Source: Candidatus Bathyarchaeota archaeon (GTDB taxonomy: Archaea; Thermoproteota; Bathyarchaeia; Bathyarchaeales; Bathycorpusculaceae). From it: DNA of 64,000 bases. The notes below the pieces were generated by a model. It did no database searches. It saw nothing but the letters and a program-made list of their open reading frames with translations, and was not told the origin of the DNA. Position 1 is the first letter of the stretch. Each line of letters begins with the position of its first letter. The stretch is taken from positions 96,001-160,000 of the forward strand of contig CAWGZR010000005.1 in the NCBI GenBank assembly GCA_963827165.1. Reading direction: 5' to 3'. A program made the position numbers and the translations under genes. Below are positions 3,401 to 19,618 of this stretch, piece after piece.

Positions 3401-4028
3401 CCAGATCGTCAAGGCGTTTCTGCACTTCGTCGATTCTTCCCATGGCAGTGCGGATGGAGATGTCTGCTGCACGGAGTTTCTCTTCCGCCTCAGCCTTCTC
3501 CGAGTCATATTGACCGATCCCGACGAGATCTTCGATTATTTTTCGACGTTCCAAAGAGTTGATTTCCGTCAGTCTTGTCAGGGTACCCTGTGGGATGATG
3601 TTTTGGCTCATGCTGCTAATAGAGCTCATCGAGAGGGTTTCTGTTATGTAAGTTCTTGACATTCTTCGTCCATTCAGTCGGTAAACGCTCTGACCATTCT
3701 TGAAAACCTCTCTAGAAATAGTCACAGTGGTGGTATCCACTGGCATTGTGCCGTCTGAATTATCAAATTGAAGGACAACCTTAGCCATCTTCGCTTTCTC
3801 TTGGCCAGCTTTATCTGAACCATGAAAAATCAGGTTTGAAGCGTTTTCAGCACGTAGCCTTCTGGTGCTTAATTCGCCAAGGGAGAAGAGTACGGCGTCC
3901 ATGATGTTGGATTTTCCGCTACCGTTCGGACCCGTAAGTGCCGTGAATCCTTTGTCTAGGGATATCTTGATAGTCTGCGGCCCAAAAGATTTGAAGCCTT
4001 TCAACTCGATTTTTTTTATATAGGGCAT
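477..4028 (-). CDS. smc: Chromosome segregation protein SMC
   Basis: 1183 aa; Walker A GPNGSGKSN, long coiled coils, hinge, signature SGGE, Walker B FYILDEVD. Confidence 0.97.
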   Translation of the reverse strand: MPYIKKIELKGFKSFGPQTIKISLDKGFTALTGPNGSGKSNIMDAVLFSLGELSTRRLRAENASNLIFHGSDKAGQEKAKMAKVVLQFDNSDGTMPVDTTTVTISREVFKNGQSVYRLNGRRMSRTYITETLSMSSISSMSQNIIPQGTLTRLTEINSLERRKIIEDLVGIGQYDSEKAEAEEKLRAADISIRTAMGRIDEVQKRLDDLERERNQLLRYNFIQAETKKFQAIKISSDITQVNVKLTEAKGQSEKVQARVDKLKEQRDVRRGKRHDIEGEWRKLSGENLEEGGSQVLRVQITIGDLKSKLTELNTKINSGQSSLESLKRVRENNVAQQENLRNEIRENRLKIRGFRSELVKLQTTLTQRASEHEVLAKQTAELWGGLDSNNEQIRAKQALIENHVKRMAFLRSEYSKEKAALRLSTGRIKSLVVRKERFQASLAEIEKSLSELEQVQKDQRIQLKNLEASIERKKTQKETVGKEIAEAEKIASSAKDAVIEFATQRDLAATIAAEEKALRSIEEMGNVGAINGIRGRLRNLIKIDRNYKKAIEAAATGWLDALVVANLDSAFTCTETLRRMKLGRIKIIPLQGAISLKNKSVPNREGVVGSLSSFMKYDSSYELAVNYVFGDTLVVSNDKVAFALSNEGWRAVTVNGDLYESGAFESGYYRAPIDFSTIIPSENALKSLDEAVNALQTHLTQRGVDITGLEEEVERSKIEMTRLQEGIATLDREIVRIKRGVKRTQFNIHHTEKYGGKLEREAASYKGRMEVYRNERNRMRREDEKLRGEIANLRLKTDVKNIQALEVEREKLGEEANKLKQNSGSMQTEISTYQSQFDRVLRNGYRNIKIQIVKVEQQQRKTEKEVADAALERDAAKKELDALEKTRVELSKAVFSSREESKKFTAQIDAIDAELRMLDTEYEVADRLRNQLQVSTETNQLRLQQLQSQLRQYGYEQPQETNQKQVEEAETTIRMMQFEIERIGAINQLALSHYTDQLSRYRELSVRLNELEREKQAIVQFMDEIEAKKRKVFMDAFEKINTSLKVYFSKLTGGGEATIKLENPEEPFSGGIDMIVQFPNKPSIVVSGASGGERSITAVAFIFSLKDFTPASFYILDEVDAHLDAYHTTKLAELLLEEAAKMQFIVITLRPEMVNKAQKVYGVYERNGVSNVVTAKFPPEVAS

Positions 4029-4303
4029 TCAGGCAGTATCCTCACGGCAAGCGATCTAGTATATTTTAACGTAAGACTATTAGGAGTATTGATATTAATT
4101 TCAATCTTATCTAATTTCGTCTTACATTCACCTTTACTTTTAACCATTAGTATTCAGAAAGCATATTAATCTAACTGAATACCCTACCTCGGAAATGCCC
4201 TAAACCTTGGCATATCAGAACTAAGAAATTTAGCTTAATTGTCCTTTTACTGAGTACGTCTTAACCTTGAATGTGCTCGGTAATAGCAGCGCACGCTTTT
4301 TGT

Positions 4304-4334
4304 GTCAAGAAATCTTTACAAGAACTCTTTTATC
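4304..4334 (+). promoter_or_regulatory. Conserved upstream element (GTCAA-N6-TTTAC plus TATA-like TTTTAT) of a secreted surface-protein gene
   Basis: 24/31 identical to 55436-55466; both lie 22-23 nt before the ATG of paralogous genes. Confidence 0.6.
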
Positions 4335-4357
4335 GCCAATCCTACCTAAAACTAATT

Positions 4358-5214
4358 ATGAGTAGAATCAGCACGAGTTTCTCATTGCTCTTTATTGTTC
4401 TCTTAGCCGTATCAAGTCTAATGATGGCTAAACCAGCATTTGCTCAAATACCTACGCCTTCGCCTTCACCTGTTCCTATTCCTATACCTACGCCCTCCGT
4501 TCCAACATTCACTGTACAGCTTGTCGGTCCTCCTTACACTGTGCCTACAACTTATTCGTTAAACCAAAGTTCAGGACAGATTGTTGCTCAAATCGGCTAC
4601 ACCGCTGAATATAATAATGTAGAAGTGACAATTAAAAATCAACCCTTTACTTCCTATGTTGATTCATCGGGAAATACCATTAACCTCTATTACAACATCC
4701 AAATAATGGACGACCAAACATCCGCTTGGACAGTCCTCTACAGTCCTGAAAGTTACCCAACACAGTCCATAGATTCCGATTATACCAACATATCAATCCC
4801 TGTGGCGACTGGTCAAAATGGGGGAATAACTATTCCTGTTGATACTCAAACCGATATCCAAGTTCAAGCAATTGATTGGATATATTACCGCAGAATTTAG
4901 TGGCATATACTATCTACTCCACCATATATTGGGGATTACTGGACCTATTCATTTGTTGGTCAAACAGGCAGTTGGAGCTGCAATGCAAACAGTAACCATA
5001 CCTGCGGATATTCCTTTAAGCCCTACCCCAACCCCAACATCCTCAACTTCAACGCTAACTCCAACTCCAATATCAACCTCTTCGTCTATTAGCAGCGCTT
5101 CTTACGCATCTCTTTTATTAATAGCTCTTGTTGTTATCACATTCTTGTTGGCTATCATTATTTTTCTTTCTAATTTATATGAGAAAACGAAAGCCCATTA
5201 ATTTAAGTGAGTGA
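4358..5214 (+). pseudogene. Secreted/membrane-anchored surface protein (paralog of 55489-56286), broken by several frameshifts
   Basis: Signal peptide and PTPSVPTFTV, IKNQPF, YYNIQ and DIQVQA motifs. The continuation LIGY / SFVGQTGSWS / QTVTIP / TM / YMRKRK is split over different frames at about 4870, 4890-4910, 4980 and 5170. Confidence 0.75.
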
Positions 5215-5251
5215 CGCCTAATTTCTTTTATTCTACGCTTTTCAGATTTAA

Positions 5252-5291
5252 GACTTATCTCTAAGTTTGATCAAACTTAAGAACATAAGTC
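5252..5291. repeat. Imperfect 40-bp palindrome upstream of the small ParB gene
   Basis: Perfect core TAAGTTTGATCAAACTTA (5262-5279) with outer arms GACTTAT/ATAAGTC. Confidence 0.8.
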
Positions 5292-5307
5292 GGCTAAAAG
5301 AAGGCTC

Positions 5308-5601
5308 ATGAAAGAACTGGATAAAGATAAAACAATCAGGTTTACCCTTGATTCTATTAAGTTATATGAAGATATTTTGCAAAAACAACAAGCAGATCCG
5401 TGTCACATGAAAAGAGTTAAAGCCCTTGCCAAAGACATATCCAAAAATGGTTTACAAAAACCAATAGAGGTTCTGCATCTCCAAAATGGGGAGTACAAAC
5501 TAATGGAAGGGTATCATCGTTACATGGCTTGTAAGTTACTTGGCTGGAAAGAGATTGAATGCTACGTTAAAGAATCAATCAAACTCTTTTATTATCAATG
5601 A
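5308..5601 (+). CDS. Stand-alone ParB/Srx N-terminal domain protein
   Basis: LAKDISKNGLQKPIEV...LMEGYHRYMACKLLG (GxxR motif). Confidence 0.85.
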   Translation: MKELDKDKTIRFTLDSIKLYEDILQKQQADPCHMKRVKALAKDISKNGLQKPIEVLHLQNGEYKLMEGYHRYMACKLLGWKEIECYVKESIKLFYYQ

Positions 5602-5649
5602 AAAATAGCAGTACTACCAGAACGAGATACTCGGTTAGTGATTAAAGAC

Positions 5650-5832
5650 TTAGGGATTTATTGAATGGTTTTTACCATAATTAGTTTTACCAAAAGTTAT
5701 GCGCCCATGCTTACCTTTAACAAGCTCTGTTATTACTTCCCGTAGTTCTTCTTTAGTTTTGTCTGGTAATGATTCATTGGCTAAATTGTAAGAGGTTTCT
5801 GTATCATCACTATACTTAACTGTTAATCCCAC
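5650..5832 (-). CDS. Small hypothetical protein
   Basis: 60-aa ORF co-oriented with and closely following the upstream element ORF. Confidence 0.5.
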   Translation of the reverse strand: MGLTVKYSDDTETSYNLANESLPDKTKEELREVITELVKGKHGRITFGKTNYGKNHSINP

Positions 5833-5844
5833 AATCTTTTTCTC

Positions 5845-6057
5845 TCATTTTTCATTTATCCATTCGAATTCACGATTTCTGTCGTTGCTTTCGTCTTTTG
5901 GAAGCCTAAAATCGCACATGGGACACGACCAAACAAAAGCACCATAGTAGCCAGCAAAAGGAACGAACGCTTTTTGCCACATTGACTGTCTATTGCTTTT
6001 TCTTATTGGCTTCACCATGTTTTTACATCGTGGGCATTTCACTAATGTTCTATTCAT
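5845..6057 (-). CDS. Small zinc-ribbon protein
   Basis: CPRC...CPMC; purine-rich RBS-like sequence upstream. Confidence 0.65.
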   Translation of the reverse strand: MNRTLVKCPRCKNMVKPIRKSNRQSMWQKAFVPFAGYYGAFVWSCPMCDFRLPKDESNDRNREFEWINEK

Positions 6058-6128
6058 TGTTCTACCGCTTTAGAATTAATTTTCACATTAAACTTATACG
6101 ATTTATGAATCTAAAATTCAGTTAATGC

Positions 6129-7602
6129 CTAACTCCTTGAAAATAGCTCTTTTTTATTTTGGTTAATGCGGTTGGTGATAACAAAATTTCTATTAGCAAT
6201 AGGACCAGTGTTAGAGTGCTTACCAAAATTACTCCATGTTTCACCACTGTTCATATCGTGGATAACTATCCTTGCCCCTGTTGCTGGTTTAATAGGAAAT
6301 AGCTGTTCATCCCAGAAGTTTAGCAATAAAAGAGAGTCTACAAGGTTGTCATAATGGGGATTGCTTTGTTTCTTATAGGACTTCATTTCTTGAATTAAGT
6401 CGTTATATTCCGCTGGTATCTCTAAACCCTGACTCTCTATCGTGTGGCTAAGTTGTTCTTGCATGACCTCTTTGTAATACCGTGAATTGACAGAGAAAAC
6501 TTTGCTCTTACCGTAAGCTTCCGATATGAGGTCAGACCACATGATAGGCAGACTATCAACCTTAACAAGCTGTACTTTATAGAGCTTTAGAAACTCTGCT
6601 ATTTCTGCAACAGCACCGTTAATCTCTTCAAATCCCCATGTCTTACGGAAGAGAACTTTAAGCTTATACTTACCGTTCTTCTCACCGATTGTTAAGGCTA
6701 ATTGGTCTCGGTCAGTGTGTCCAGTTCCACCACCGTCTACACCTGCCCATCTAATGCCACCTTCGCTTAGTACCTGTTCTCTAATAGCTTTGTTAATTTG
6801 CTCTGTGTCCCATAGTAACTTAATGCTGCTCTCGGATATTTCCCCGAGTACATCCCTTTTCCATTCATCTTCCGTCATTATCGTTTTTTTGTTGGTTAAT
6901 TCTTCTTGACTGTGCCAATCACAGTCTATTTAGCTCCACTTGAAAAGAGTAAAATTATATTTCTTAGGGTTTTTGAGTATCTCATTAAACTTAGAATACG
7001 GAGAGCTTGGAGTACCTAAGACTACCAGCTTAATCTTTTTACCGCTAAGATTCCCATAAGCAGTAGATAGTGTTTAAGAAGGCATTAATTCAGCCTCATC
7101 TAAGAAAAGAATGCTCGCACTTGCTCCACGAATACCCTTCTCGGAAGAGGATAATAGCTGCACCTTGCTACCGTTCTTTAAAGAGTAACCGTCTTTAGGG
7201 ATAATGTTGGCTACTCCTTCCCAACTTACATACTGCCTAAGCTCTGGGTTAGAGCTAAAGATGTCTGTTATGTGTTGGTAAACGTAGTTCTCTTTAGCAG
7301 AGACTAAACATACTTGAATCTTATTTTTGAGCGTTAAGTAAATAGCTGCTACTGCACAACATAACGACTTTGCCTGTCTGTCTGCCAGCTGAGATAAGAA
7401 CGTTAGTTAACTCTGGGTTTTCTAATCCCTGTAAGACCTCTATTTGTTTAGCGGTAGGAATTAGCTCTGTAATCTTAGTAAAAAATTCTGTTATGCTGAG
7501 ACTGAGAAGGGTATCACTTTCTATAGCTTTTGCTAAGTTTCCCTCTTTAGCCTTCTTTCGGTTTCTGTAATTCTTTTGTATAATTGCTCTGTCTAATGGC
7601 AA
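6129..7602 (-). pseudogene. Terminase large subunit (ATPase plus RNase H-like nuclease), disrupted
   Basis: Manual translation gives Walker A SAGRQTGK(S), GIRG...ILFLDEA (Walker B), coupling motif LGTP, and nuclease GVDGG...DNLVDS. There is one +1 frameshift at about 7369 and two in-frame TAA codons (about 7075 and 6931). Confidence 0.85.
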
Positions 7603-7638
7603 TAAAAATATCTCCTATTGGGGTTTATTTAAAAAAAC

Positions 7639-7782
7639 TTAGGATTCTGGTTTAGTTTTATCTGGAACGTTTAAAAGATTCCCGTCTGCATAGAGTTTCT
7701 TATAGAAATCGAGATTCTTTTTACTTAAGCCAATTTTGGTTAGAATCTCTTCCTTAACTTCTTCGGGAGTTTTTTTTGTCAT
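7639..7782 (-). CDS. 47-aa hypothetical protein (not in the ORF track)
   Basis: MTKKTPEEVKEEILTKIGLSKKNLDFYKKLYADGNLLNVPDKTKPES; fills the gap before terL. Confidence 0.5.
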   Translation of the reverse strand: MTKKTPEEVKEEILTKIGLSKKNLDFYKKLYADGNLLNVPDKTKPES

Positions 7783-8491
7783 GACTAAACAATCCTTTTC
7801 TCTTCTTGGAGTCTTTTTTAGGCTCTATGCTCTTTCGTTCTGCTCGCTCGTAAGATTCTACTACAGCTTTGTTTATCCAACCACCAGTAGTAGTATCTCT
7901 AACAAAACCGAACTCTTCCATCCCGTAATCTCTTGGATATTTCTTTTTAGCTTCTGGTTGCTTTGGTTTTTGTGCTGTAACTGGTTGCGTTACGTTAAAC
8001 AATTTTCTTATCATTGGGTCATGTATCGGTACAATCTTTAGTATGTAGATGTAATCAACTGTCTCGCCTTGAGTATCCGAGTTCATAGTTCCGACTTTTA
8101 CTTTAGCTGTTGAGTAGTCCTCTGACCATTCTATATCTGAGCTTTTGTATATGCTGCCTTCGTAGAAATCGAAGCGACCATTTCCATTATATCTTAGACT
8201 GTATCGAGCATTTCCATCACTAAGACTTATAGCAATCCCAACTGGCATTGTTGCTACTAAAAACTCGGTGCGTGGCATTAATTGATACTCTGCTATCAGG
8301 TCGTTTAGTCTTTTTATAGCTGTCTTCTGTGCCTCTACCGAGGGATAGATAACGCTCGGGTTTCCTACACTATTTTGGAGAGATTCTATTTCTTTTAGAA
8401 TCTCTCGTTTTTTCGTTTTTAATTGTTCATTATCCATTTTAATTACTTCCTTGTTCTCTTGCTTTTTCGTGATATGAGAACTGTAACACAT
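7754..8491 (-). CDS. Hypothetical protein (N-terminal coiled coil, beta-rich core)
   Basis: 245-aa ORF in the element operon; no motif recognised. Confidence 0.7.
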   Translation of the reverse strand: MCYSSHITKKQENKEVIKMDNEQLKTKKREILKEIESLQNSVGNPSVIYPSVEAQKTAIKRLNDLIAEYQLMPRTEFLVATMPVGIAISLSDGNARYSLRYNGNGRFDFYEGSIYKSSDIEWSEDYSTAKVKVGTMNSDTQGETVDYIYILKIVPIHDPMIRKLFNVTQPVTAQKPKQPEAKKKYPRDYGMEEFGFVRDTTTGGWINKAVVESYERAERKSIEPKKDSKKRKGLFSHDKKNSRRS

Positions 8492-8658
8492 TAACCCTCA
8501 GAGCCTACACGCACAGCAATCTCTTTGTTATGCTTGTTTAGATTCGTGGAGCTATCCCCTTTACAGCCTCTTAATTCTCTAAGTTGTGCTGGCGAAAGTG
8601 TTTGACCGACTACATGCCGTTTGTAGCTATACCCTCCATGATTTGAGTTAGATTTCAT
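8491..8658 (-). CDS. 55-aa hypothetical protein (not in the ORF track)
   Basis: MKSNSNHGGYSYKRHVVGQ...; ATGA overlap with the upstream ORF and TAATG overlap with the downstream ORF. Confidence 0.55.
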   Translation of the reverse strand: MKSNSNHGGYSYKRHVVGQTLSPAQLRELRGCKGDSSTNLNKHNKEIAVRVGSEG

Positions 8659-8867
8659 TGGTGACATAACCCCGAATCACACTGATTTTGAAAATGACGT
8701 TTCATATCCAATTCGCTCTTTGCTTTTGGTGCTGGTAAATCGAATTTAGTTAATAGAGCTATATCTCCCTCTAACTTTGCTATGTTCTTCATTCTTTCTC
8801 GTCTCACTGGACACGTAGAAGAACAACTTTTCTCTGGAAAAGCTCTTTTCTTAATTGTGTGAGTCAT
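8655..8867 (-). CDS. Small Cys-containing hypothetical protein
   Basis: 70 aa, CxxxC motifs, ATGA-coupled. Confidence 0.6.
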   Translation of the reverse strand: MTHTIKKRAFPEKSCSSTCPVRRERMKNIAKLEGDIALLTKFDLPAPKAKSELDMKRHFQNQCDSGLCHQ

Positions 8868-9106
8868 TGTTCCCTACTCCATTGTCTCATTTCTGGATAT
8901 ACTTCGTTTCGTACCCAGACTGGTCTGTTATTATTGGTTGTTTCAATATGCCATGAATAGGCTTCATTGATAGACTCTGCTTCCCTTTCAAATTCTAAAT
9001 AACAACCTATTGAACAGAAAAGGTCTGTCTCTAACTCTGGCTCGTAAAGTTTACCGCATTGAATACATTTCCGTTTAATTACGGCTAAAGAACCCAAGTT
9101 TGCCAT
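8864..9106 (-). CDS. Small treble-clef-type Zn-finger protein
   Basis: CIQC...FCSIGC; TAATG coupling. Confidence 0.65.
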   Translation of the reverse strand: MANLGSLAVIKRKCIQCGKLYEPELETDLFCSIGCYLEFEREAESINEAYSWHIETTNNNRPVWVRNEVYPEMRQWSREQ

Positions 9107-9303
9107 TAGTAAGACCAGCCTCCATAAACGCCCTTAGCATGGTGTTTGTGTAGTTTGTACTTCTGTTTACAGTCTGGGGAACACCAGAGATTATCTTTCA
9201 TGTACGTTTCAAATTCTGCTCCACAAGGACACTTACGAGTTATAATTTCATGAGAAAGATTAGCTAAGATTTCACTCACCATCTTAAAACACCAAACCAA
9301 CAA
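9106..9303 (-). CDS. Small treble-clef-type Zn-finger protein
   Basis: CPCG...WCSPDC; true start probably a few codons downstream (MVSEI). Confidence 0.6.
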   Translation of the reverse strand: MLVWCFKMVSEILANLSHEIITRKCPCGAEFETYMKDNLWCSPDCKQKYKLHKHHAKGVYGGWSY

Positions 9304-9544
9304 AGAACCTTTCTGGGTGTCTGTAGATTTCTTTCCTTAGCTGTCCTATTCCGAGTCTATGATAACATTCTCTAAGGGTAGCATTGTACTCTAATCTCTT
9401 CTCGGTTCTAAACTTCTTTGCTGACTTTCGACACTGTTCGCGCTCTACCTTATTCGCACATGAGAATGAACAATACTTTCGCCTACCCTTTGGGATAGGA
9501 TTATCACATTCTAAACAAGCAGCTTCTTTATTCACTCTAATCAC
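9284..9544 (-). CDS. Small treble-clef-type Zn-finger protein
   Basis: CLEC...RKYCSFSC. Confidence 0.65.
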   Translation of the reverse strand: MIRVNKEAACLECDNPIPKGRRKYCSFSCANKVEREQCRKSAKKFRTEKRLEYNATLRECYHRLGIGQLRKEIYRHPERFFVGLVF

Positions 9545-9726
9545 TAAACACTTGCTGCTCTCTTTGCTACAGTCTCAATCTTTGCTTTGTCTAAATCCCA
9601 ATTATCAAGTGTATCTTTGTCAGGGACTAAGTTATCTGGTAAATTAATATCAAACTCTACTTTGTGTATCTCCCTACATGTTGGGCATTGAACATTGAAC
9701 AGAAATTTATGTTTCTTAACACCCAT
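9544..9726 (-). CDS. Small protein with CPTC motif
   Basis: Start reassigned to ATG 9726 (MGVKK...), TAATG-coupled to the upstream micro-ORF. Confidence 0.6.
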   Translation of the reverse strand: MGVKKHKFLFNVQCPTCREIHKVEFDINLPDNLVPDKDTLDNWDLDKAKIETVAKRAASV

Positions 9727-9851
9727 TAAACAATATCCCCTAATAGTATTCTTCCACACTCACAACAGAGAAACCGTTGTTTCTTTCCCTGTCTGGTAAT
9801 CTGCTTACCAGCCTTAACGATGTGAAGACTGCCACATTGACATTTTTCCAA
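9726..9851 (-). CDS. 41-aa IS1 InsA-like zinc-ribbon protein, copy 2 (not in the ORF track)
   Basis: MEKCQCGSLHIVKAGKQITRQGKKQRFLCCECGRILLGDIV; TTG start, GGGGT RBS, TATA-like sequence upstream; clear paralog of 11692-11823. Confidence 0.8.
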   Translation of the reverse strand: MEKCQCGSLHIVKAGKQITRQGKKQRFLCCECGRILLGDIV

Positions 9852-9990
9852 GTTAGCTACCCCTAATCTATTGATTCATAGAAAGGTATATTAATACTTC
9901 ATGGTACTTCACTATACCCTAAACTTGATTTTTTTAGCTGTAGAAAACTTGGATTCACTATAAAAAGAGTATTGATTGTTCTTTCAGCTT

Positions 9991-10022
9991 CTTATTCTAC
10001 CGTGCTAAGACCGTACAATTAG
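9991..10022. repeat. 13-6-13 palindromic site A
   Basis: CTTATTCTACCGT-GCTAAG-ACCGTACAATTAG. Confidence 0.8.
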
Positions 10023-11668
10023 AGTTTCTTTCTTCCTTTAATGTACCAAGCGAAGCGTTCTAAGGTTTCAGTTTCTTTGAGAGATAATAGTTTATTTTCT
10101 TCTTCGCGGAATGGTTCCCAACCACTCCTAAACTTCCCATATTTTTTAAACAATAAGGGATGAATCTTATTGAAAGCTTTTTTTAGTGATAATTTCTTAT
10201 TTGAGAAGTCGGTAGTCAATTGTTGATGTATTTCTGGAAATATTGTTTTACTGGTTTCTATTAGGAGTACAGAATCGAGTTTTTCTATTGCTTTGTTTTC
10301 TTCTTCAAATGATGGTGGAAGAACCGTGTTTCTAACCATACTATTTTTGATTGGAATCTCTAATAGTTGAATTAATTGTAGTTTTAATGCTCGTATTCTT
10401 TTCTCTTCACTCTTCTGGATAAGCTCAATAGCTTCTTCTTTGATTGGGCTATGAACAAGAACATCTATTTTATGGCAGATATTAGCAAGTTTAGCTATTG
10501 GGTCTGTTGCATAATTCTCGGGGTTAATAGTATCTATTTTTTCTTGCTGGTCTGGATGGGAAACTTTGATATTTTTAATGTAATCTGTGATACGAGCAGT
10601 AGCTTCTTCTTCTGTTAGATATTCTATTGGATAGAATTTTTCTGTATTGTCATTGATGTCGTTTGATACATATTTTTCTGTACCAAATATTTTAGAATAA
10701 TCAGTATGAGCTAATAATAGAGGTTTCCAATCAGCTAAGTTATTTTCTACTAATTTCTTTCCAAGGTCTGTTAAGTAATATTTGTATTTGGCTTCATGCG
10801 ATTCAAAGCTATGTAGATTTTCTCTGCGTATTAAAAGGTTCAATACCAATGTGTTTATTGCAGTATTAAGAGAGTGACTAAAGTTACGAGCATAACCATC
10901 ATTTTTGGCTTTTACTTCGAGAAGTCCTATAACCTCAATGAAATCTGATTGTTTTAATCCTTCTTTGTTTGGTATAGTAAATATGTAAGCTGCTTCCTTT
11001 GTATCATGTTTATAATAATTTTCAAAATAGTTGATGTAAACCAAGAAGGCTTTTTGTTGTAGTGATAATCTATGTGATTTTTCGGCGAACTTTCTTGCTT
11101 TCTCCATCATTCTTTGTTCGGGTGAAATCTTGAATCCCATACGTTCAAATGGGTTTTTTTTAGACTCGGGTTTTACAGAAACATAAGAAGCATATTGTTT
11201 GTTTCCAACTAATTTCCCTTCATATTCGTAATGATGAACGTCTTGCTCGTTCATATCTAATAGGGCTGCTTTCTCCACTGCTGGTAATTCGCTATCGTTT
11301 ACAGAAACAGCAAACTCTTCTTCTGTAAGTGGAGTACGTTTGTGATTAGCAGCACGAGCTATCTTATGAGCTTCTTCTTTGCTTAACCCTTCGTAGATTT
11401 TAGCTTCTAAGGTCTGTTTCTCTGAGTATTCTTTAGTGCCTTTAGTTCTACAGAATCCATCCAGTAGTTGATATTTGTCTCCTGTCTTCAATAAAAGGAT
11501 AGGATAAAGCTGTCCTTCTGATTCGATGCTTTTGGCTAAGTTCTCTAATCTCTTAGGGTTGTAGTCTAATCTGCTTTGATATGTCTCGTCTTTAAGATCT
11601 ATCTTGTCTATTTGGAAATCTGGAACATAAAGAGGTTTTTTACTTGTTTCCTTTTGTGATGCTTTCAA
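10019..11668 (-). CDS. Large ParB N-terminal domain protein with probable winged-helix domain
   Basis: LAKSIESEGQLYPI...LLDGFCR...ANHKRTPL; later wing-like YYLTDLGKKLV. Confidence 0.85.
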   Translation of the reverse strand: MKASQKETSKKPLYVPDFQIDKIDLKDETYQSRLDYNPKRLENLAKSIESEGQLYPILLLKTGDKYQLLDGFCRTKGTKEYSEKQTLEAKIYEGLSKEEAHKIARAANHKRTPLTEEEFAVSVNDSELPAVEKAALLDMNEQDVHHYEYEGKLVGNKQYASYVSVKPESKKNPFERMGFKISPEQRMMEKARKFAEKSHRLSLQQKAFLVYINYFENYYKHDTKEAAYIFTIPNKEGLKQSDFIEVIGLLEVKAKNDGYARNFSHSLNTAINTLVLNLLIRRENLHSFESHEAKYKYYLTDLGKKLVENNLADWKPLLLAHTDYSKIFGTEKYVSNDINDNTEKFYPIEYLTEEEATARITDYIKNIKVSHPDQQEKIDTINPENYATDPIAKLANICHKIDVLVHSPIKEEAIELIQKSEEKRIRALKLQLIQLLEIPIKNSMVRNTVLPPSFEEENKAIEKLDSVLLIETSKTIFPEIHQQLTTDFSNKKLSLKKAFNKIHPLLFKKYGKFRSGWEPFREEENKLLSLKETETLERFAWYIKGRKKL

Positions 11669-11691
11669 AGTTGTTCTACCTCATAAGCCCT

Positions 11692-11823
11692 CTATTCTGT
11701 AGGGTTTAACACTCTGCCACAATCTTGGCATTGATACCTCTGAGTTTTTCCCTTTCTCGTAACCCTAAAACCCATCTTTACGATATGGGTACTTCCACAG
11801 ACGCATTTAGTTGGTTTACTCAC
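11692..11823 (-). CDS. 43-aa IS1 InsA-like zinc-ribbon protein, copy 1 (not in the ORF track)
   Basis: MSKPTKCVCGSTHIVKMGFRVTRKGKTQRYQCQDCGRVLNPTE; GTG start, TTTATAT box upstream. Confidence 0.8.
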   Translation of the reverse strand: MSKPTKCVCGSTHIVKMGFRVTRKGKTQRYQCQDCGRVLNPTE

Positions 11824-11944
11824 GGTCTTACTCTTCCCCAATATAGGTAGGTCTGTTTATAGATATAAAGATTATGGTTACTTCATATAGAATAGACCAT
11901 ACATCCTAAAGAAATATTTGTAGCCTCTCCCCATGACTGTAACT

Positions 11945-11976
11945 CTTATTCTACCGTGCTGTCACTGTATAATAAG
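11945..11976. repeat. 13-6-13 palindromic site B
   Basis: CTTATTCTACCGT-GCTGTC-ACTGTATAATAAG. Confidence 0.85.
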
Positions 11977-12064
11977 GAAATACTATTAGAGATAACAAAC
12001 CTTATTGTTTCATCTCATTAAGATGCAGATCAACCAATGCAAAAAGGGCAACGTTATTCGGTCT

Positions 12065-12097
12065 CTTAATGTAACCTTGCTGTCTATGTACAATAAG
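12065..12097. repeat. Degenerate palindromic site C
   Basis: CTTAATGTAACCTT-GCTGTC-TATGTACAATAAG (same spacer as B). Confidence 0.7.
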
Positions 12098-12521
12098 AGA
12101 ATGATAATAAGCCTATTCTTATTAGACCGTCACGGACTTTCTAATTACTAACTGTTATTTTTTTATTGATGATTTAGCGAGCCTGAAACACCTTACTTCT
12201 ACAGGGAAATAATAAGATAAGTTAAAAGTGTTTTCAATCTTAAGAGATAGGGAAACACCTTACGAATATTATTACTCGGCTAATTACTTGAGGTTGAGGT
12301 CGTATCCCGTTCTTAGTATCCTGAAGCCTTAATGAAGGTGAACGAGCCATTTAGCCACTTTAAACTCTTCCGAGTGACCTTACTTGTTCATTAGACTTTC
12401 TCGCCAATGCATTCTCTACACAATCAAGAAGTAATAGAGCATTGGCATACAAACAATTACTCCTTGATTGGTTAGATATTAACCCCTTTCTCGGCTCACA
12501 TAAAAAGCGTTATGGTTCAGT

Positions 12522-12553
12522 CTTAATGTACCGTGACAGCACAGTATAATAAG
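12522..12553. repeat. 13-6-13 palindromic site D, spacer inverted relative to B
   Basis: CTTAATGTACCGT-GACAGC-ACAGTATAATAAG; its reverse complement is 27/32 identical to site B. Confidence 0.85.
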
Positions 12554-12988
12554 AGTCGTAAGCAAAGGACAGAAGTAAGAGAAAAACAGATTTGTTATTT
12601 TTTATTTTTTATAGTATCCAGTATACTATACTGGATTAGCCGTTTCAAGCATTAATGAAGCATATTTCTGTTTTGTTTGATACTGGTAGGGTTACTCTGA
12701 GGTATTGAGATAAGCAGTATTGATATTGATTTGATGCATGGATGTAGACCCCTTGAAAAGACCATACATGGAGACCAGCGAGACCAGTCTCTTAATAGCG
12801 AGAACCTACCATCCAAGAAACTTAGCGTATAAGCTAAACCTTATTGAATATGAGTTAAAACTGTACTTAACTATTAGTATCCTTGCAAGCGAGTGAAGTC
12901 TGTAAGACGGAAGGAGCGCAGCTATAAGTACAGTTAGTTAAAGCATGGAAAATAATGATTGTTAGTAACAGTTTAGTTACTTGAAAGG

Positions 12989-14089
12989 TTACTCTTCTTT
13001 TAGTATGTCTTCTGCTTGTTTGTCTCTCTCTTCTTGATCGTGTATTATTTCTTCTAAGCTGTAGTCTTTAGCTAATAATCCTCTTTCCTTGAATGCAGTT
13101 AGTAAGGAATTGAAAGCGTATTCTAAGTTGTTGTACTTTTTCTCTAATTCACTAAGTTTCTTAACCTGTTCCTTGCTAATGCCAGAAGCAGCTTGAAAGT
13201 CTATGTTTAGATAATCATTGTAGACTGTAGGGTACTTCTCTTCTATCTCAACTTTGAGCGTCTGTAAGTAAGTTCTATCAGAGACTCCTATAGCCTTACC
13301 GAGAATGAACTTGATTTGAAACTCGTTAAAGCCACATCTGCTTAACCGAGACATCAGCCATTTTCTTATATTGTGGAATCTTAGACCACCAGTAGTTTTA
13401 AGACCGCTATTAACAGCTAACCGAGAAAGCATTTTCTGAATACCATCTGGGGTAAAAGGGAATAGTTTAGGGTTATCGTCTTTTCTTGTTTCAAGGTATT
13501 TAGATAACCATTCGATTGCAAGGGGATTAAAGACCGCTAATCTTGCTTCGCTTGTTTTGCTTCTGGTATCTTCAAAGAAAATAAACTTCTCATCATTTGC
13601 TTTAGCATGTTCAATTAATCGATATACTCTTTCTCTCTCTAATTCTAAGAAACTTGATATTTCCCATCCTAAGCTTGAAGCTGTGGCTATGATTGCTTTT
13701 TCTTGAGTGTCTCCTACTTGGAATAACTGCTTAAGGTCTCCATTAGTAAAAACGTGAGACTCGTTATCAGCTTCAACTTTCCCTAACATGCCTCTTCTAA
13801 ACTTCACGCTTTTATTTATTTGAGCTAAATAAGACCTAACGGCAATAATAACAGCTAAGACGCTGTTCTGTTTTTCACCCTTTGCTAAGGCTTCTCTTCT
13901 ATAATTCATGATTGCGCTCTTAATATCGTCTGGTTCCATTTCTCTAAGTTTCTCTTCACTTAATCCAGTAGCAGCAAAAAAGTTTTGAATTCTGTTCTTG
14001 TACATTCTTCGTGTACTGGGGTTTGAGAATTCGTTTAACCAGCCTTCAATACTTTTGTTTGATACTGGTTTATTCTTTGATTCGCTCAT
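12989..14089 (-). CDS. Tyrosine recombinase/integrase
   Basis: SAM-like N-terminus (STRRMYKNRIQNFF), RSKT, FHNIRK (HxxR), ILGK...RTY catalytic Tyr. Confidence 0.88.
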   Translation of the reverse strand: MSESKNKPVSNKSIEGWLNEFSNPSTRRMYKNRIQNFFAATGLSEEKLREMEPDDIKSAIMNYRREALAKGEKQNSVLAVIIAVRSYLAQINKSVKFRRGMLGKVEADNESHVFTNGDLKQLFQVGDTQEKAIIATASSLGWEISSFLELERERVYRLIEHAKANDEKFIFFEDTRSKTSEARLAVFNPLAIEWLSKYLETRKDDNPKLFPFTPDGIQKMLSRLAVNSGLKTTGGLRFHNIRKWLMSRLSRCGFNEFQIKFILGKAIGVSDRTYLQTLKVEIEEKYPTVYNDYLNIDFQAASGISKEQVKKLSELEKKYNNLEYAFNSLLTAFKERGLLAKDYSLEEIIHDQEERDKQAEDILKEE

Positions 14090-14478
14090 TCGCTAACACC
14101 TTATTTGACACTCTCAATAGATACAGTATGGTTACTTACTTTTAAAGGTTGTTAGATATCAATACTTGTAGTATGTGTATTTAACATCTCAGCAACATAC
14201 GTATAAAAGCTTATAGATATGCTACTGCTGTCAGGGAATAATTTCGAACCATGAATCGCTCAGCATTTGAGAAACATTTTGATTCTTTCTAAAAATGCTT
14301 GTAACGCTTTCATTGTTATCTCGTCACATTTTGTCCAGCCTGAAGTCCTACTAGCAGAATTAAATCATTTGACGTTAATTCGTACATTCGCACCGTTATG
14401 TCTTAGCAGTTTCTTTACCGTTAGAAGTTGAGTTGATACTAAAAAAAAGGAGATGGATTTTTTGTTTTGCTACTCTAT

Positions 14479-17181
14479 TTATGGTTTTCTTCTAAGCAGT
14501 ATCATTGCGAGTATGGCGATTCCCACGATTATTACAATTATTGTTGCAATTCCTATGTACATAACGGCGTTTTGCGTAGCTATACCTGTGAGTGGTGTTG
14601 CTGTTGGTGCAGATGTTGCTGCTGGTGAGGCGGCGTAGAATCCTGTGGAAGCAGTTGATCCATAGTATGATTGTGTGCCAGCAAAGGTTGCGTATACAGT
14701 GTAGTTACCTGCAATGTCAGGTTTCCACGTAAATGAGTAGTCGCCTAAGCTGTTTGTTGTCGTTGAGCCAATTGATCGGTAGTTGTTATTGGAGTCCAAT
14801 ACGTAGAAATTGACTGGGACTCCTGTTATGTTGCTCGGCATTGGCTGCTGCTCGTAAACTGCCTCCATAAACGGTGTCATGCTTGCATCAGAAACACATG
14901 GTAAGCCATTAGGAAAGTTGGCTGCGACTGCATTTTGCTGTGAGCCTGCGGAGATGTCGGTCACTGATCCTGTTACGGTTATTTGAGTGGAAGTTGTTAT
15001 GCCAACATCTGGTGCTGTAACGGTTGTTTTACTTGGTCCCATGCCGAAACCGTATATTTGGTTGTCATAGTCGTTTATCGTTGTCATTACACCGTCTGAA
15101 ATTGCTGGGGCACTCGTAATGTCGAAGCCCAATATGCTCCATGCCAGTTTTCCAGTGGTAGTGTTTATGGCAAGTTCGCTAGCTCCATGGAATAACGGTG
15201 GACTGTACATGTGACCTTCTGGAACGAATAGCATTCCATCAGCGAGTGATCCGCAGGTGAATGTCCAAAGAGGCCAGACTCCATAGGGTGTGTTAGACCC
15301 AGCAGGACCTGATAGTGTGTTAGTATTTGTCTGCCACGCGATCGCGCCTGTGGCCATGTTAATGGCCCATACGTCTCCTCCGAATCCCCACAAGTAAAGT
15401 ACTCCGTTGGCGAGAACTGCTTGATAGCCGCCGATGCTGTCGTAAGGATTGGCGCCGGCCAGACTTGTCGTCCATAGGCTGGTTCCTGTAGTCAAACTGT
15501 AACCAACAAGTGTTGACGTCTCCTCGTTAACTACAGCATAGGTCGAATCTCCGACTGCCGCGATAGATATCCTTGAAAACGGGGTTTCTGTCCTATTAGT
15601 TATCCATAGTTGTGCTCCGGTATTTGCGTTGTAGCCTGCCTCGATTTGGAAGCCAGATTGGAAGAATTGTTCTCCTGTGTATCCTGCATCTGTCATCAGT
15701 ATAATTCCACTATTGATTGATGAAATCGCTAGAGTTCCAGGCAAAGCCGACGCAGATGGTAAAGGAACGCCGTTAAGAGTCGTGGGTAGTGGCACAGTCC
15801 ACATTATCCCAGCTGAGAATTGAATGGTGGATCCCAGCACAGGTCTCCAAGACCAGTTTTGGTAGCCTGGAGCTTGGCCATTAGGGTACAGAATTGCTTG
15901 TGTCGAATTCCACATATTCAAGGTGGGTGCATTTGGATTAGTAGCGTTTACATAGTAGCCAATCAAGTCTCCACTTTGATCTTCAACCAGCGTTAATGGC
16001 GCAAGTCCAGATGCGGCAGGCGCATTGACAACAGTAAGTATAGGCTGTCCAGTCATGGCATCTAGCATTCCATATGTTGCGCCGGTGTTGGGGGGTATTG
16101 TTGGCTCTTGGACCCAAAGGTAAGCTAAGCTTCCGTACTGATTGGGTGAAACATAATCGTATATTTGACCGCATCTAAGTGTCGTTGTGTAAGGAACTGC
16201 TCCTGATGTTGTTAAGCCTCCCGAGGTTTCAAGCAAACCCTGTTGTAGTTGTGGCACGGTATAATTAAGACCCGTGTCGGTCCATAGTGTTTGTCCAGTT
16301 TGTAAGTTTACTGCGGTAATGCCTGCTGGGTCTTGGTTAGAGTTCGGGTACTCGGTGTAGTAGAGAATACCGCTTATTATTACAGGTGCGAATTTGGGTT
16401 CATACTGGGATGTCGAGTAGAAATTGCTCGTGTCGGATCCTCCGAATTCTCCGCCCACTAAGCCTCCGAAAGACTCAGGTTTTGTCCATAGGATGTGAGC
16501 GGATGTTGGCGCAGTAGTGTATGGATTATAGTTTCCGGTAATATTGTACTCGCCTGTGTTGGCAAATGTGGATGTACCTAAACCAAGCCAGTTCCCGCTA
16601 ATTGTATACCATTCGTTGTTCACTGATTCTATTGGACGACTCCAATAGTTTGTTGGAAGCGGAGTTTGGGGTATCATTGGTACTGGCCCTTGTTGCACTA
16701 CAAGAGTGTATGCTAAGCTGGTGCTTGGTTCATAATAATCTCCGATGAATGCCTTTGTTGCGGCAGTTGTTGTGGAAATAAGATTTGTTCCTGCCAACGT
16801 CTGTCCCGGAAAGCTCATCTGGAAAGTGTAGTTGCCAGCTTGACTAGGTGTATAATCTGTATGTGTTCCTCCAGTGTCGTCGGCTGTAAAGGTTCCAAGT
16901 TTTGTAGTGGTTCCATCAGGTAACTTTACCGTTACTGCCAATCCAGTCCATCGATCGCCATAAACGCCGCTGGCTGTTGGTGTCGGCAAACCGAGCCAAA
17001 AGCCAACGTTAACTGTTTGACCAACGCCGGCAGGGTTAGGATTTACTTCAATGTAAGCGTATGTTGGAATGTTCCATGGTGGTGAATGCGCATTTACGTT
17101 TGGTACTAAAATCATTGAACCCGTCATAGAAAGCACAAAGAATACACAAATTGTTATAGCTGCGATTTTGTTTTTCAACAT
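14479..17181 (-). CDS. Cell-surface PQQ-like beta-propeller repeat protein
   Basis: Signal peptide, repeated A(V/I)NxxTGxxxW motifs, Ig-like C-terminal domain, TM anchor plus RRKP. Confidence 0.9.
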   Translation of the reverse strand: MLKNKIAAITICVFFVLSMTGSMILVPNVNAHSPPWNIPTYAYIEVNPNPAGVGQTVNVGFWLGLPTPTASGVYGDRWTGLAVTVKLPDGTTTKLGTFTADDTGGTHTDYTPSQAGNYTFQMSFPGQTLAGTNLISTTTAATKAFIGDYYEPSTSLAYTLVVQQGPVPMIPQTPLPTNYWSRPIESVNNEWYTISGNWLGLGTSTFANTGEYNITGNYNPYTTAPTSAHILWTKPESFGGLVGGEFGGSDTSNFYSTSQYEPKFAPVIISGILYYTEYPNSNQDPAGITAVNLQTGQTLWTDTGLNYTVPQLQQGLLETSGGLTTSGAVPYTTTLRCGQIYDYVSPNQYGSLAYLWVQEPTIPPNTGATYGMLDAMTGQPILTVVNAPAASGLAPLTLVEDQSGDLIGYYVNATNPNAPTLNMWNSTQAILYPNGQAPGYQNWSWRPVLGSTIQFSAGIMWTVPLPTTLNGVPLPSASALPGTLAISSINSGIILMTDAGYTGEQFFQSGFQIEAGYNANTGAQLWITNRTETPFSRISIAAVGDSTYAVVNEETSTLVGYSLTTGTSLWTTSLAGANPYDSIGGYQAVLANGVLYLWGFGGDVWAINMATGAIAWQTNTNTLSGPAGSNTPYGVWPLWTFTCGSLADGMLFVPEGHMYSPPLFHGASELAINTTTGKLAWSILGFDITSAPAISDGVMTTINDYDNQIYGFGMGPSKTTVTAPDVGITTSTQITVTGSVTDISAGSQQNAVAANFPNGLPCVSDASMTPFMEAVYEQQPMPSNITGVPVNFYVLDSNNNYRSIGSTTTNSLGDYSFTWKPDIAGNYTVYATFAGTQSYYGSTASTGFYAASPAATSAPTATPLTGIATQNAVMYIGIATIIVIIVGIAILAMILLRRKP

Positions 17182-17548
17182 TTTTCTTTTTTCTCCTGAA
17201 TTTATTTATCCTGAGAAGAAATAAAATAAATATGGGCTTCTCAGGGCACGTTATTTTTCACAGATTTGGTATAAGTAATTTGCCTAATTTTTTTATCGTG
17301 ATTTAAAGCAAATAAGCGCTATTACTCAATTGATAAAGATACAAAATTAAATGAAAATAGTGGTTTTGCTTCAAAAAATAACCCTTCACAAAAAAATTCT
17401 CGCCGAAGAGGGAAAAAAAAAGGACGACACCCATGAAAGGAGAAAGCGGTCGACGATGGTACAGGGCATAGGCTCAGATTAAGCAAAGCATAAGGAATTA
17501 ATGTTTAGCATTACAGTTTAGAGTGTATGTGTTGTGGGGCGATTGAGT

Positions 17549-18988
17549 ATGAAAGTGACGGTTGCAGTGTTAAGTAAGCGTGGAAATAACGCAGTTGATC
17601 ATGTGGTTGAAGTGCTCAAAGAGTTCAATGAGCAATCCTTTCATTTCGGGATGGTTTCCCCCCGAAAAATCGTAATTGACAAGAACCTTGATCTACTATT
17701 CAGGCAAAGCCCTGAATCTTCAACCGCGGTTGGTTACGCTTCATCAAAACCAGCAGCAAAAGGCTACGAGTTTCTGCAGTTGAAAGAGGCATCGCTTGTC
17801 TTTCAAGGCAAAGTGTATTCGTCAATACCAAAAACCGCCGTTTTGCAGCAGCTTTCCAAAGAACCACAGCACTGCGAAACCATCCTGCAAACATTAATCG
17901 AAAAGGCCGACGGGGACTACTCGTTTCTTATGCTAAAAGACGGCTGGATTGCTACGGGTAGAGACCCAATAGGAGTTCAACCGCTTTATTACGGCGAAAA
18001 CCAAGAAGTAGCAGCTGTCGCCACAAATCGAAATGCACTGTGGAAACTTGGAGTAGAAAACCCAGTTTCTTTTCCGCCCGGAAACCTATGCTTCATAAAC
18101 CGCGAAGGCTTCCAGTTTAAACCGATCAAAAACCTGAGCTTTTCTGAACCAAAACTCATAACCTTGGATGATGCAGCTCAAAAGCTTCAGATCCTAATTG
18201 AAGAATCAATCAAGCGTCGAACACAGGATTTAAAAGAGGTCGCTGTTGCGTTTTCAGGCGGCTTAGACAGCAGCCTTGTTGCTTACTTGGCAAGCAAACG
18301 CGGGTTGAAAGTTAACCTGTTCCATGTTAGCATGGAAAACGAGGCGGAAATCGAAGAAGCCTTCGCTGCGTCAGAACAGCTGAACCTGCCGCTTCAGATG
18401 CATCTATTCAAGGATTCGGATGTGGAGAAAACTCTGCCTAAAGTGGTGGAATTGATTGAGGAGGCTGATCCAGTTAAGGCCAGTATTGGGTTGCCGTTTT
18501 TCTGGGCAGCGGAGGAGGCGGTTGAAGCGGGATTTCAAGTTATGTTGGCTGGGCAGGGCGCGGATGAACTTTTTGGGGGGTACCAACGCTACGTTGCCGA
18601 GTATTGCAAGGAGGGCAGTGAAAAGGTCTTAAAAACAATGTTTAATGATGTGATTAACATTCATTTGAGCAATCTTGAACGTGACTTGAAAGTTACGGGT
18701 TATCATGATGTAGAGCTGAGAATGCCCTTCGCTTCGTTTGATGTTGCCGAGTTCGCTATAAGGTTGCCGATTGAATGTAAAATTGAGCCCAAGCAGGATA
18801 CGTTAAGGAAACTGGTTTTGCGCAGGGTAGCATTGAATGTTGGTATGCATGGTTCGGTTGTGGATAAGCCTAAGAAAGCAGTTCAGTATTCAACGGGCGT
18901 AAATGACGCTGTGAAGCGAGTGGCGAAAAAACGCGGCGAATCCGTCAACGAATACATAGAGAAGCTTTATCAACAGTCAAGGCGCTGA
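17549..18988 (+). CDS. Asparagine synthetase B-like protein
   Basis: RDPIGVQPLYY, SGGLDSS, GQGADELFGGY; no N-terminal Cys. Confidence 0.85.
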   Translation: MKVTVAVLSKRGNNAVDHVVEVLKEFNEQSFHFGMVSPRKIVIDKNLDLLFRQSPESSTAVGYASSKPAAKGYEFLQLKEASLVFQGKVYSSIPKTAVLQQLSKEPQHCETILQTLIEKADGDYSFLMLKDGWIATGRDPIGVQPLYYGENQEVAAVATNRNALWKLGVENPVSFPPGNLCFINREGFQFKPIKNLSFSEPKLITLDDAAQKLQILIEESIKRRTQDLKEVAVAFSGGLDSSLVAYLASKRGLKVNLFHVSMENEAEIEEAFAASEQLNLPLQMHLFKDSDVEKTLPKVVELIEEADPVKASIGLPFFWAAEEAVEAGFQVMLAGQGADELFGGYQRYVAEYCKEGSEKVLKTMFNDVINIHLSNLERDLKVTGYHDVELRMPFASFDVAEFAIRLPIECKIEPKQDTLRKLVLRRVALNVGMHGSVVDKPKKAVQYSTGVNDAVKRVAKKRGESVNEYIEKLYQQSRR

Positions 18989-19230
18989 AACGCAAAACAG
19001 GCCATTGACTAACCCCTTGTGGTTTTCTGTTGACTTTTATTCACTTTTTTTGAATTTTTTTAACATATTATGACTTTTGTTCACGACAGTTAACTTTAGT
19101 AGACTTTTAGGGACGGATGCTGCAGAAGATTTGAGTCCTGCCGCAAAAAAGAAACCCAAAACACAAAGAAAAAAATCTTTCCCAATAAATGAGTTAGCCT
19201 CTGGATTCGCCCATGTAATTTTAGGATTGT

Positions 19231-19301
19231 CTATAATTGTCTGAAAGTGCATAATACTGTCTGGAAGCGTATAATATTGTATGAATGCATATAATATTGT
19301 C
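19231..19301. repeat. Tandem 20-bp repeat, about 3.5 copies
   Basis: ctataattgtctgaaagtgc / ataatactgtctggaagcgt / ataatattgtatgaatgcat / ataatattgtc. Confidence 0.8.
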
Positions 19302-19440
19302 TTTTTTAGACGCAACCTACAATGAATTCAATCCCCGAATCAAGAAAGCAGCTCAAAACTCAAACAACGAAATTTGCCGCGCCAAAAAATACGGAACCAC
19401 CTCTCACAAGTCAGCGGTCTTATTTTGTATTTTTTAGACT

Positions 19441-19490
19441 TTTTGAGATGTTTTGGGATGTTTCGAGATGTTTTAAGATGTTTTGGGAGA
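19441..19490. repeat. Tandem 10-bp repeat, 5 copies
   Basis: ttttgagatg ttttgggatg tttcgagatg ttttaagatg ttttgggaga. Confidence 0.85.
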
Positions 19491-19618
19491 CTAGTTGCAA
19501 TCAAATCAAGCACCAAACCGAAAAACCAACCCAAAACAAACCCAAAATTTTTTCGCGGAAAAATGAAGGGCTATCATTTATGCCAATAAAAACGTCACGG
19601 AAATGGGTTTCTGCCAAA

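Follow-up and report, generated by a model that had tools for sequence, protein, structure and literature searches.

Two paralogous micro-genes lead separate minus-strand units of an integrated element

Within a 64-kb stretch of the genome of a Candidatus Bathyarchaeota archaeon (contig CAWGZR010000005.1; hereafter the window, with position 1 as its first nucleotide), an integrated element of about 10 kb carries two very small genes, mg1 and mg2. Both encode stand-alone zinc ribbons, listed here by window coordinates. Genome-wide comparisons covered the 3.13-Mb assembly of 14 contigs. Thermosome, Cdc6, and TackOD1-type genes in relatives of the host mark it as an archaeon.

9726..9851, minus strand: mg1, a stand-alone zinc-ribbon gene of 41 amino acids (aa) with the pattern CxC...CxxC; TTG start after AGGGGT; relative, P0015 (51 aa)
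11692..11841, minus strand: mg2, a stand-alone zinc-ribbon gene; product of 49 aa if read from the TTG at 11841 and of 43 aa if read from the GTG at 11823 (the likelier start)

The GTG is the more likely start of mg2 because its closest relative, P0002, is also 43 aa long and begins with MSKPIQ, compared to MSKPTK in mg2. G-rich, Shine-Dalgarno-like motifs precede the starts of both genes. In pairwise comparison, the two products are identical at 21 of 34 positions and similar at 27 (E = 4e-15), and no other significant copy was detected in the genome (next match, E = 0.04). mg1 and mg2 are thus genuine paralogous genes. Their differences fall on codon positions 1, 2, and 3 in the numbers 11, 9, and 18, respectively. 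Over the 34 codons, non-synonymous divergence is 0.28 against a saturated synonymous value of 0.75, as expected for proteins maintained by selection; all four cysteines and the basic hairpin are kept in both diverged paralogs despite this saturation.

Each gene heads a unit transcribed from the minus strand. mg2 is followed, 23 nucleotides (nt) on, by an open reading frame (ORF) for a 549-aa ParB_N-like protein, and the stop codon of mg1 overlaps the next ATG (TAATG), after which comes a chain of abutting or overlapping small ORFs. An initial annotation made from the sequence alone had described two paralogous peptides, each first in a minus-strand unit; the peptide sequences proved to be exactly as quoted there, and the positions of both genes in their units were confirmed.

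The products are IS1/IS1595-type ribbons without HTH or DDE domains

To the IS1-like character that the initial annotation had read from the ribbon pattern, family models give a name. NCBIfam model NF050000 (IS1/IS1595 family N-terminal zinc-binding domain; curated cutoff, 28 bits) matched mg2 above the cutoff (32.2 bits, E = 1.1e-7) and mg1 just below it (26.8 bits, E = 5.5e-6; 1.2 bits short). The related Pfam families PF03811 (Zn_ribbon_InsA) and PF12760 (Zn_ribbon_IS1595) were not listed for either protein at E values up to 1. Relatives of the same ribbon do score on both families (for one of them, L118, 33.1 bits on PF03811).

The two cysteine pairs are spaced as in a zinc ribbon (about 20 to 25 residues), the first pair being CxC and not CxxC, and residues C7, C9, C32, and C35 are invariant or nearly so among 51 sequences. 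An AlphaFold2 model of mg2 built from these 51 sequences (predicted local distance difference test score, 86) places a long beta-hairpin (E14-22/E25-32) between the cysteine pairs, and mg2 is confidently predicted to be a zinc ribbon. Searches of the PDB by sequence returned only recurrent short matches to the C2H2 "YxCxxCGKxF" knuckle (each at E above 1) and generic ribbons, and a Foldseek comparison of the mg2 model with the PDB gave no match at E 0.001 or better. NrdR ribbons were among the weak Foldseek matches (ranks 6 to 9; TMq, 0.57 to 0.60), at E values that are not significant (0.47 to 0.65). Neighbors in the ESM Atlas include a cluster of 44-aa "InsA N-terminal domain-containing protein" sequences, which we take as a lead only.

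Both proteins terminate 5 to 10 residues past the last cysteine. Domain scans of 16 ORFs of the island detected neither a helix-turn-helix (HTH) nor a DDE domain in or after mg1 and mg2, in agreement with the absence of a DDE domain first reported. The ParB-like frame opens only past the mg2 stop codon (open frame of 553 aa versus an ORF of 549 aa), which excludes a frameshift fusion of the InsAB' style.

The closest relatives of mg1 and mg2 are free-standing proteins

An exhaustive search of 1.84 billion representatives returned 117 matches at E 0.001 or better. Most are proteins of 40 to 65 aa or tandem double ribbons of approximately 100 to 130 aa, and some are 250-aa RNase_H_2 exonucleases with a C-terminal ribbon. 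A word-based homologue search with mg2 yielded no candidate; the relatives came from the exhaustive search. The closest are free-standing proteins of 40 to 70 aa from metagenomes, viral contigs, and related archaeal genomes, including P0002 (70% identical to mg2) and P0015 among relatives at 56 to 70% identity. Where source databases (JGI/IMG) name free-standing relatives, the name is "transposase-like protein".

Metagenomes contributed 24 ribbon loci, four of which were left out as partial matches; in the 20 whose frames were examined, 19 encode 43 to 69 aa and one encodes 175 aa. Viral contigs contributed 65 loci, comprising 47 fused forms (with exonuclease, IS1595 transposase, or other domains), 2 proteins of 91 to 200 aa, and 16 free-standing ribbons. 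Ribbon matches were present in 116 of 200 genomes of the host's family, where many front IS6-family transposases of 370 to 460 aa (PF13610, NF033587) and others lie in frames of 45 to 110 aa. Three proteins (P0022, P0032, and P0071; 280 to 713 aa) carry arrays of up to 6 to 8 ribbon repeats each.

At 15 genomic ribbon loci, neighboring genes code for integrases, Cas1, a fusellovirus-like capsid protein, and toxin-antitoxin and restriction systems, among others; a D5 primase gene with a terminase gene behind it also occurs. The best genomic relative of mg2, a 41-aa ribbon (L042, G139:C30), has a fusellovirus VP2-like capsid gene on one side and Cas1 on the other. Among 29 non-redundant free-standing ribbons with enough flanking sequence, a same-strand ORF starts no more than 60 nt downstream in 12 and ends no more than 60 nt upstream in 8, which fits an operon-leading placement that is frequent but not universal.

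The initial annotation had allowed that homologs might turn out to be merely truncated IS1 transposases; the closest are instead free-standing. mg1 and mg2 belong to the transposase-ribbon family as stand-alone proteins, not as truncated transposases, and are new members of a known but uncharacterized class of mobile-element mini-proteins. A limited literature search found no functional study of free-standing ribbons in print.

Repeated palindromes and a common promoter motif accompany the micro-genes

Two kinds of repeated element lie upstream of mg1 and mg2:

9991..10022, no strand: site A, an imperfect 13-6-13 palindrome with spacer GCTAAG; overlaps the stop codon of the ParB_N-like gene, 139 nt before mg1
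11945..11976, no strand: site B, a 13-6-13 palindrome (spacer, GCTGTC); distance to the GTG of mg2, 121 nt (103 nt to the TTG)
12522..12553, no strand: site C, a third copy of the palindrome with spacer GACAGC, the reverse complement of the site B spacer; in the non-coding stretch between the integrase gene and mg2
9901..9909, minus strand: AAGTACCAT motif, with A/T-rich, TATA-like sequence on its flanks; distance to the mg1 start, 49 nt
11874..11883, minus strand: AAGTAACCAT motif, 50 nt before the GTG start of mg2
14128..14137, minus strand: AAGTAACCAT motif, 38 nt before the integrase ATG, directly after TTTAAAAG

The 32-bp palindrome has the form CTTATTNTACNGT-N6-ACNGTANAATAAG. Its three matches, against 0.00 expected in the window, are also the only three in the genome; degenerate half-sites occur at 12085-12130. 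A degenerate version of the pattern has two matches in genome contigs (L152 and L153); both are terminal in their contigs, which come from a single Bacteroidota metagenome-assembled genome, and they are probably an unrelated repeat. The AAGTA(A)CCAT motif occurs six times in the window compared to 0.86 expected, a count reached in none of 100 shuffled sequences, and a fourth copy lies inside the mg2 coding sequence. A/T-rich, TATA-like stretches stand beside the motif upstream of mg1, mg2, and the integrase gene, the choice of any one as the TATA box being a reading.

These distances bear out the initial placement of a palindrome 120 to 140 bp upstream of each micro-gene and of a TATA-like stretch and an AAGTA(A)CCAT motif between the two. 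The further description of the arrangement as a duplicated module stands in part. The paralogs, the sites, and the motif do recur at similar spacing. However, once the site, the motif, and the coding region were removed, the stretches upstream of mg1 and mg2 aligned no better than shuffled sequences (z = 1.2; 41 of 300 shuffles reached the score). What the two upstream regions have in common is a set of elements at similar spacing, and duplication of a whole block is not demonstrable.

The micro-genes reside in a partly decayed virus- or plasmid-like element

The low-GC island that contains both genes extends from about 4000 to 14200 of the window (GC fraction, 0.34 to 0.38, versus 0.42 to 0.50 in the surroundings). 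The island is an integrated archaeal virus- or plasmid-like element of approximately 10 kb, partly decayed. Its main genes besides mg1 and mg2 are as follows:

12989..14089, minus strand: tyrosine recombinase (integrase), 366 aa; phrog_1 at E 4e-10, and XerA_Arch at E 7e-15, below the cutoff
10019..11668, minus strand: ParB_N-like protein, 549 aa, second gene of the mg2 unit; only residues ~20 to 125 match ParB
5845..9726, minus strand: mg1-led run of abutting small ORFs, including three Cys-rich ORFs and a disrupted terminase gene

The integrase, whose closest relatives reach 57% identity, is separated from mg2 by 1.1 kb of non-coding DNA. The ParB_N-like protein scored just under the cutoff of PF02195 (26.0 bits; cutoff, 26.3) and matched phrog_1033 (E = 4e-12) and the N domains of ParB/Spo0J in the PDB (E = 5e-5). 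No close relatives of this protein were found in the genome or viral contig collections, and the 200 related genomes gave only ParB_N-domain matches.

In the mg1 unit, the run of small Zn-proteins ends at a remnant of the gene for a terminase large subunit (~6129-7602, minus strand). This pseudogene has a frameshift, and TAA codons interrupt its reading frame at two positions, 7076 and 6932. Its Walker-A piece (7321-7602) sits in another frame, and the broken gene otherwise aligns with residues 45 to 429 of an intact 469-aa relative in genome G180. No terminase relatives were found in viral contigs. Two terminase-related elements were found in related genomes: that of G180, with a ribbon gene upstream, and that of G179, in which none was detected. 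The G180 element (L048, G180:C1) encodes, in order, a 63-aa ribbon, a 699-aa D5_N/DUF5906 primase-helicase, and the intact terminase, and has no repeated palindrome. Also in the mg1 unit, three consecutive small ORFs (8864-9544, minus strand; 80, 65, and 86 aa), probably paralogs in tandem, have the pattern CxxC...[YFW]CSxxC in common and show weak matches to zinc-finger families of the NinG, HNH, and DksA-like types.

Metagenome contigs helped to locate the right border of the element, although their cover of the island is patchy and uncovered parts were not interpreted. Contigs of three other metagenome runs either match only the ~40-bp stretch at ~14180-14226 or continue from 14180 into the host flank, and they diverge at ~14180 on the island side. 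This stretch is likely the right attachment (att) site or border. An exact 17-nt direct repeat has one copy in non-coding sequence downstream of the integrase gene (12671-12687) and the other within the 5' coding region of that gene (14053-14069); it may represent a vestige of an att site. Another repeat, of 23 nt (87% identical), links the left edge of the island (4079-4101) to the region downstream of the integrase gene (12710-12732), and an inverted copy of the 11-nt core of this repeat precedes the integrase promoter closely (14156-14166). A contig of run X1 passes directly from 12667 to 12880, leaving out 212 bp, and has 12 differences in the matching part; it probably comes from a related element. 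An Rfam scan of the island and a tRNA gene scan of positions 1-20000 of the window each gave 0 matches.

mg1 and mg2 as candidate regulators of their own element

Our preferred reading, held tentatively and with somewhat less than even confidence, is that mg1 and mg2 serve the element as small regulators or adaptors that bind DNA in a Zn-dependent manner. We infer this role from the function of the domain in InsA, whose zinc finger and HTH are both required for binding specific to the inverted repeats (PMC12428005), from the conservation of the basic hairpin, from the place of each gene at the head of its operon, and from the element-specific cis repeats. Each ribbon would fold as a Zn-bound beta-hairpin of ~40 residues, with a conserved basic face (K-x-G...TR-x-GK-x-QR[YF]) that would contact DNA. 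Their targets could be cis sites of their own element: the three copies of the 32-bp palindrome, the AAGTA(A)CCAT motif close to the promoters of mg1, mg2, and the integrase gene, or both. Acting there, they might tune their own operons, by analogy with InsA at the ends of IS1. DNA binding, the site bound, and any regulatory effect are all steps that we infer, and a regulatory role is plausible on these grounds.

Several observations weigh against this reading. In InsA, the ribbon works together with an HTH that mg1 and mg2 lack. Pfam gave nothing for mg1 and only sub-threshold, unrelated matches for mg2. Some 100 nt separate each upstream palindrome from the putative TATA box that follows it, which is an unusual arrangement for an archaeal repressor. 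The site pattern had 0 matches in viral contigs and was not found at any ribbon-relative locus examined, so that the co-occurrence of gene and site, for which the initial annotation had suggested looking in archaeal genomes, was seen only inside this one element. Palindromes of any sequence were weakly enriched upstream of ribbon relatives (mean best, 9.28 of 13 matching positions, versus 9.0 in controls): 16 of 40 free-standing ribbons had a palindrome with at least 10 of 13 positions matching, compared to 39 of 200 control windows, with several of the loci redundant. The element is decaying, as its broken terminase gene attests, which makes intact 43-aa ORFs weak evidence of current function. 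Finally, the ribbon is fused to RNase_H_2 exonucleases in viral proteins of 250 to 330 aa, which suggests that its role may be generic contact with DNA or protein and not sequence-specific regulation.

The same fusions bear on an unlikely but credible alternative, in which mg1 and mg2 are Zn-ribbon proteins acting on proteins or RNA (as anti-defense or replication accessory factors) or are functionless leftovers, the cis repeats serving other factors. The ribbon forms the C-terminal tail of RNase_H_2 exonucleases (phrog_403; fused forms at 47 of the 65 viral loci), its genomic relatives are often found among defense and toxin-antitoxin genes, some relatives show weak matches to the Lar family (E ~0.02), and the decay of the element fits the leftover reading. 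Retention of the four cysteines and the basic hairpin in both paralogs, while synonymous sites became saturated, argues against it, as does the matched spacing of mg1 and mg2 to a common motif. That the genes are truncated remnants of IS1, IS6, or IS1595 transposase genes is largely refuted and very improbable. The family does occur in transposases, including the many IS6-type frames among the 116 matching genomes. However, no DDE or HTH remnant follows mg1 or mg2, functional-looking unrelated genes come directly after them, the closest ribbon relatives are themselves free-standing, and beyond the pair the host genome offers nothing better than the E 0.04 match. Five IS6-type copies had no terminal inverted repeats resembling the palindrome half-site.

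Two further alternatives turn on the larger neighbors of mg2. TFIIB has an N-terminal zinc ribbon. In thaumarchaeal conjugative elements, a TFIIB homolog is encoded directly upstream of a ParB-like gene (PMC6563490), and in plasmid pNOB8, the small dimeric protein AspA recognizes a 23-bp palindrome that precedes aspA-parB-parA, and ParB-N in turn binds AspA (PMC5120986). With these precedents, mg2 could be the site-specific DNA-binding first component of a segregation or silencing cassette with the ParB_N-like protein, the palindromes that bracket it being centromere-like sites: the ParB_N-like gene begins 23 nt after mg2, this two-gene unit lies between sites B and A, and site C is 577 bp further up. 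We consider this arrangement, although attractive, quite unlikely. No ParA or Walker ATPase was detected among the 16 scanned ORFs, mg1 has no ParB partner, a ParB_N gene lay within 3.5 kb of only 1 of the 15 genomic ribbon loci and was not adjacent, the ParB_N-like protein has no close relatives in which the pairing with mg2 could be examined, and the ribbon fold differs from the winged helix of AspA. The more specific scheme, in which mg2 would nucleate on the bracketing palindromes and recruit the ParB_N-like protein while mg1 would do likewise for a late or packaging operon, is doubtful; if true, a DNA-binding module of insertion sequence (IS) origin would have been domesticated as a centromere or silencing adaptor of archaeal mobile elements, with a zinc ribbon replacing the winged helix. 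The initial annotation had proposed stand-alone regulators or recombination directionality factors forming a two-step switch. Two 13-bp arms around a 6-bp spacer are the classical core-site geometry of tyrosine recombinases, and the 13-6-13 sites fit it; the palindromes might accordingly be core sites of the element's integrase, with the ribbons as directionality or architectural factors, for example in inversion of the 545-bp segment between B and C (11977-12521). The spacers of sites B and C are identical but inverted relative to each other (GCTGTC and GACAGC), as in an invertible segment, and the AAGTAACCAT-type motif is common to the integrase gene and both ribbon genes. Relatives of the integrase (28 to 57% identity) occur in 35 of the 200 related genomes, and at the best 12 loci, inspected up to ±10 kb or to the contig end where nearer, none had a ribbon gene (best hidden Markov model match, E = 0.15) or a site within 6 mismatches; no other island protein was present there either. 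It follows that the ribbons do not accompany this integrase family, and the proposal of recombination factors in a two-step switch is unsupported. In addition, the B-C segment contains neither an Rfam match nor an ORF longer than 48 aa and does not include the mg2 promoter, and the spacer of site A differs. Metagenome contigs cross sites B (11839-11989) and C (12501-12657) in the reference orientation only, which counts as weak evidence, as contigs drop rare variants. We regard a recombination role as improbable.

Comparison with known systems

Free-standing ribbons of the IS1/IS1595 type are frequent in archaeal genomes, viral contigs, and metagenomes, with dozens of stand-alone forms. Among them, the present locus is a compact test case: its two paralogs have diverged, its unique palindrome is present three times, and a single short motif is common to exactly three promoters. 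Learning what the stand-alone mini-domain does would aid the annotation of archaeal mobile elements and would overturn nothing.

Free-standing "transposase-like" mini-proteins (such as P0002, P0015, P0010, and the L125-L143 frames), together with tandem double ribbons of ~100 to 130 aa, resemble mg1 and mg2 in size, motif, stand-alone state, and sequence (up to 70% identity). None of these was found with the palindrome, the ParB_N-like gene, or the integrase of this element. The archaeal IS6-family transposases abundant in the host's family (PF13610, NF033587) have the same ribbon, with 40 to 58% identity over ~30 residues, but combine it with SWIM, HTH, and DDE domains in proteins of 370 to 460 aa, whereas mg1 and mg2 consist of 41 to 49 aa and nothing else.

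Two other systems offer more distant parallels. The AspA-ParB-ParA system of pNOB8 likewise has a small first-gene protein before a large ParB_N-type protein and a palindrome upstream of the operon. However, AspA is a dimer with a winged-helix fold, that system includes a ParA whereas none was found here, and there is no sequence relationship, so the likeness is one of analogy only. The N-terminal ribbon of NrdR, a DNA-binding repressor, shows the use of a generic Zn-ribbon fold for sequence-specific DNA binding; NrdR also carries an ATP-cone, and given that the fold matches are not significant, we claim no homology. A further comparison is with InsA of IS1 (NF050000; PF03811 and PF12760). Relative to it, mg1 and mg2 lack an HTH, a downstream insB'/DDE frame, a frameshift window, and IS ends, and their first cysteine pair is CxC in place of CxxC. 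The four-Cys ribbon, the basic hairpin, and the QR[YF]xCxxCG knuckle are present in both, and InsA, too, is a small regulator made from the DNA-binding end of a transposase.

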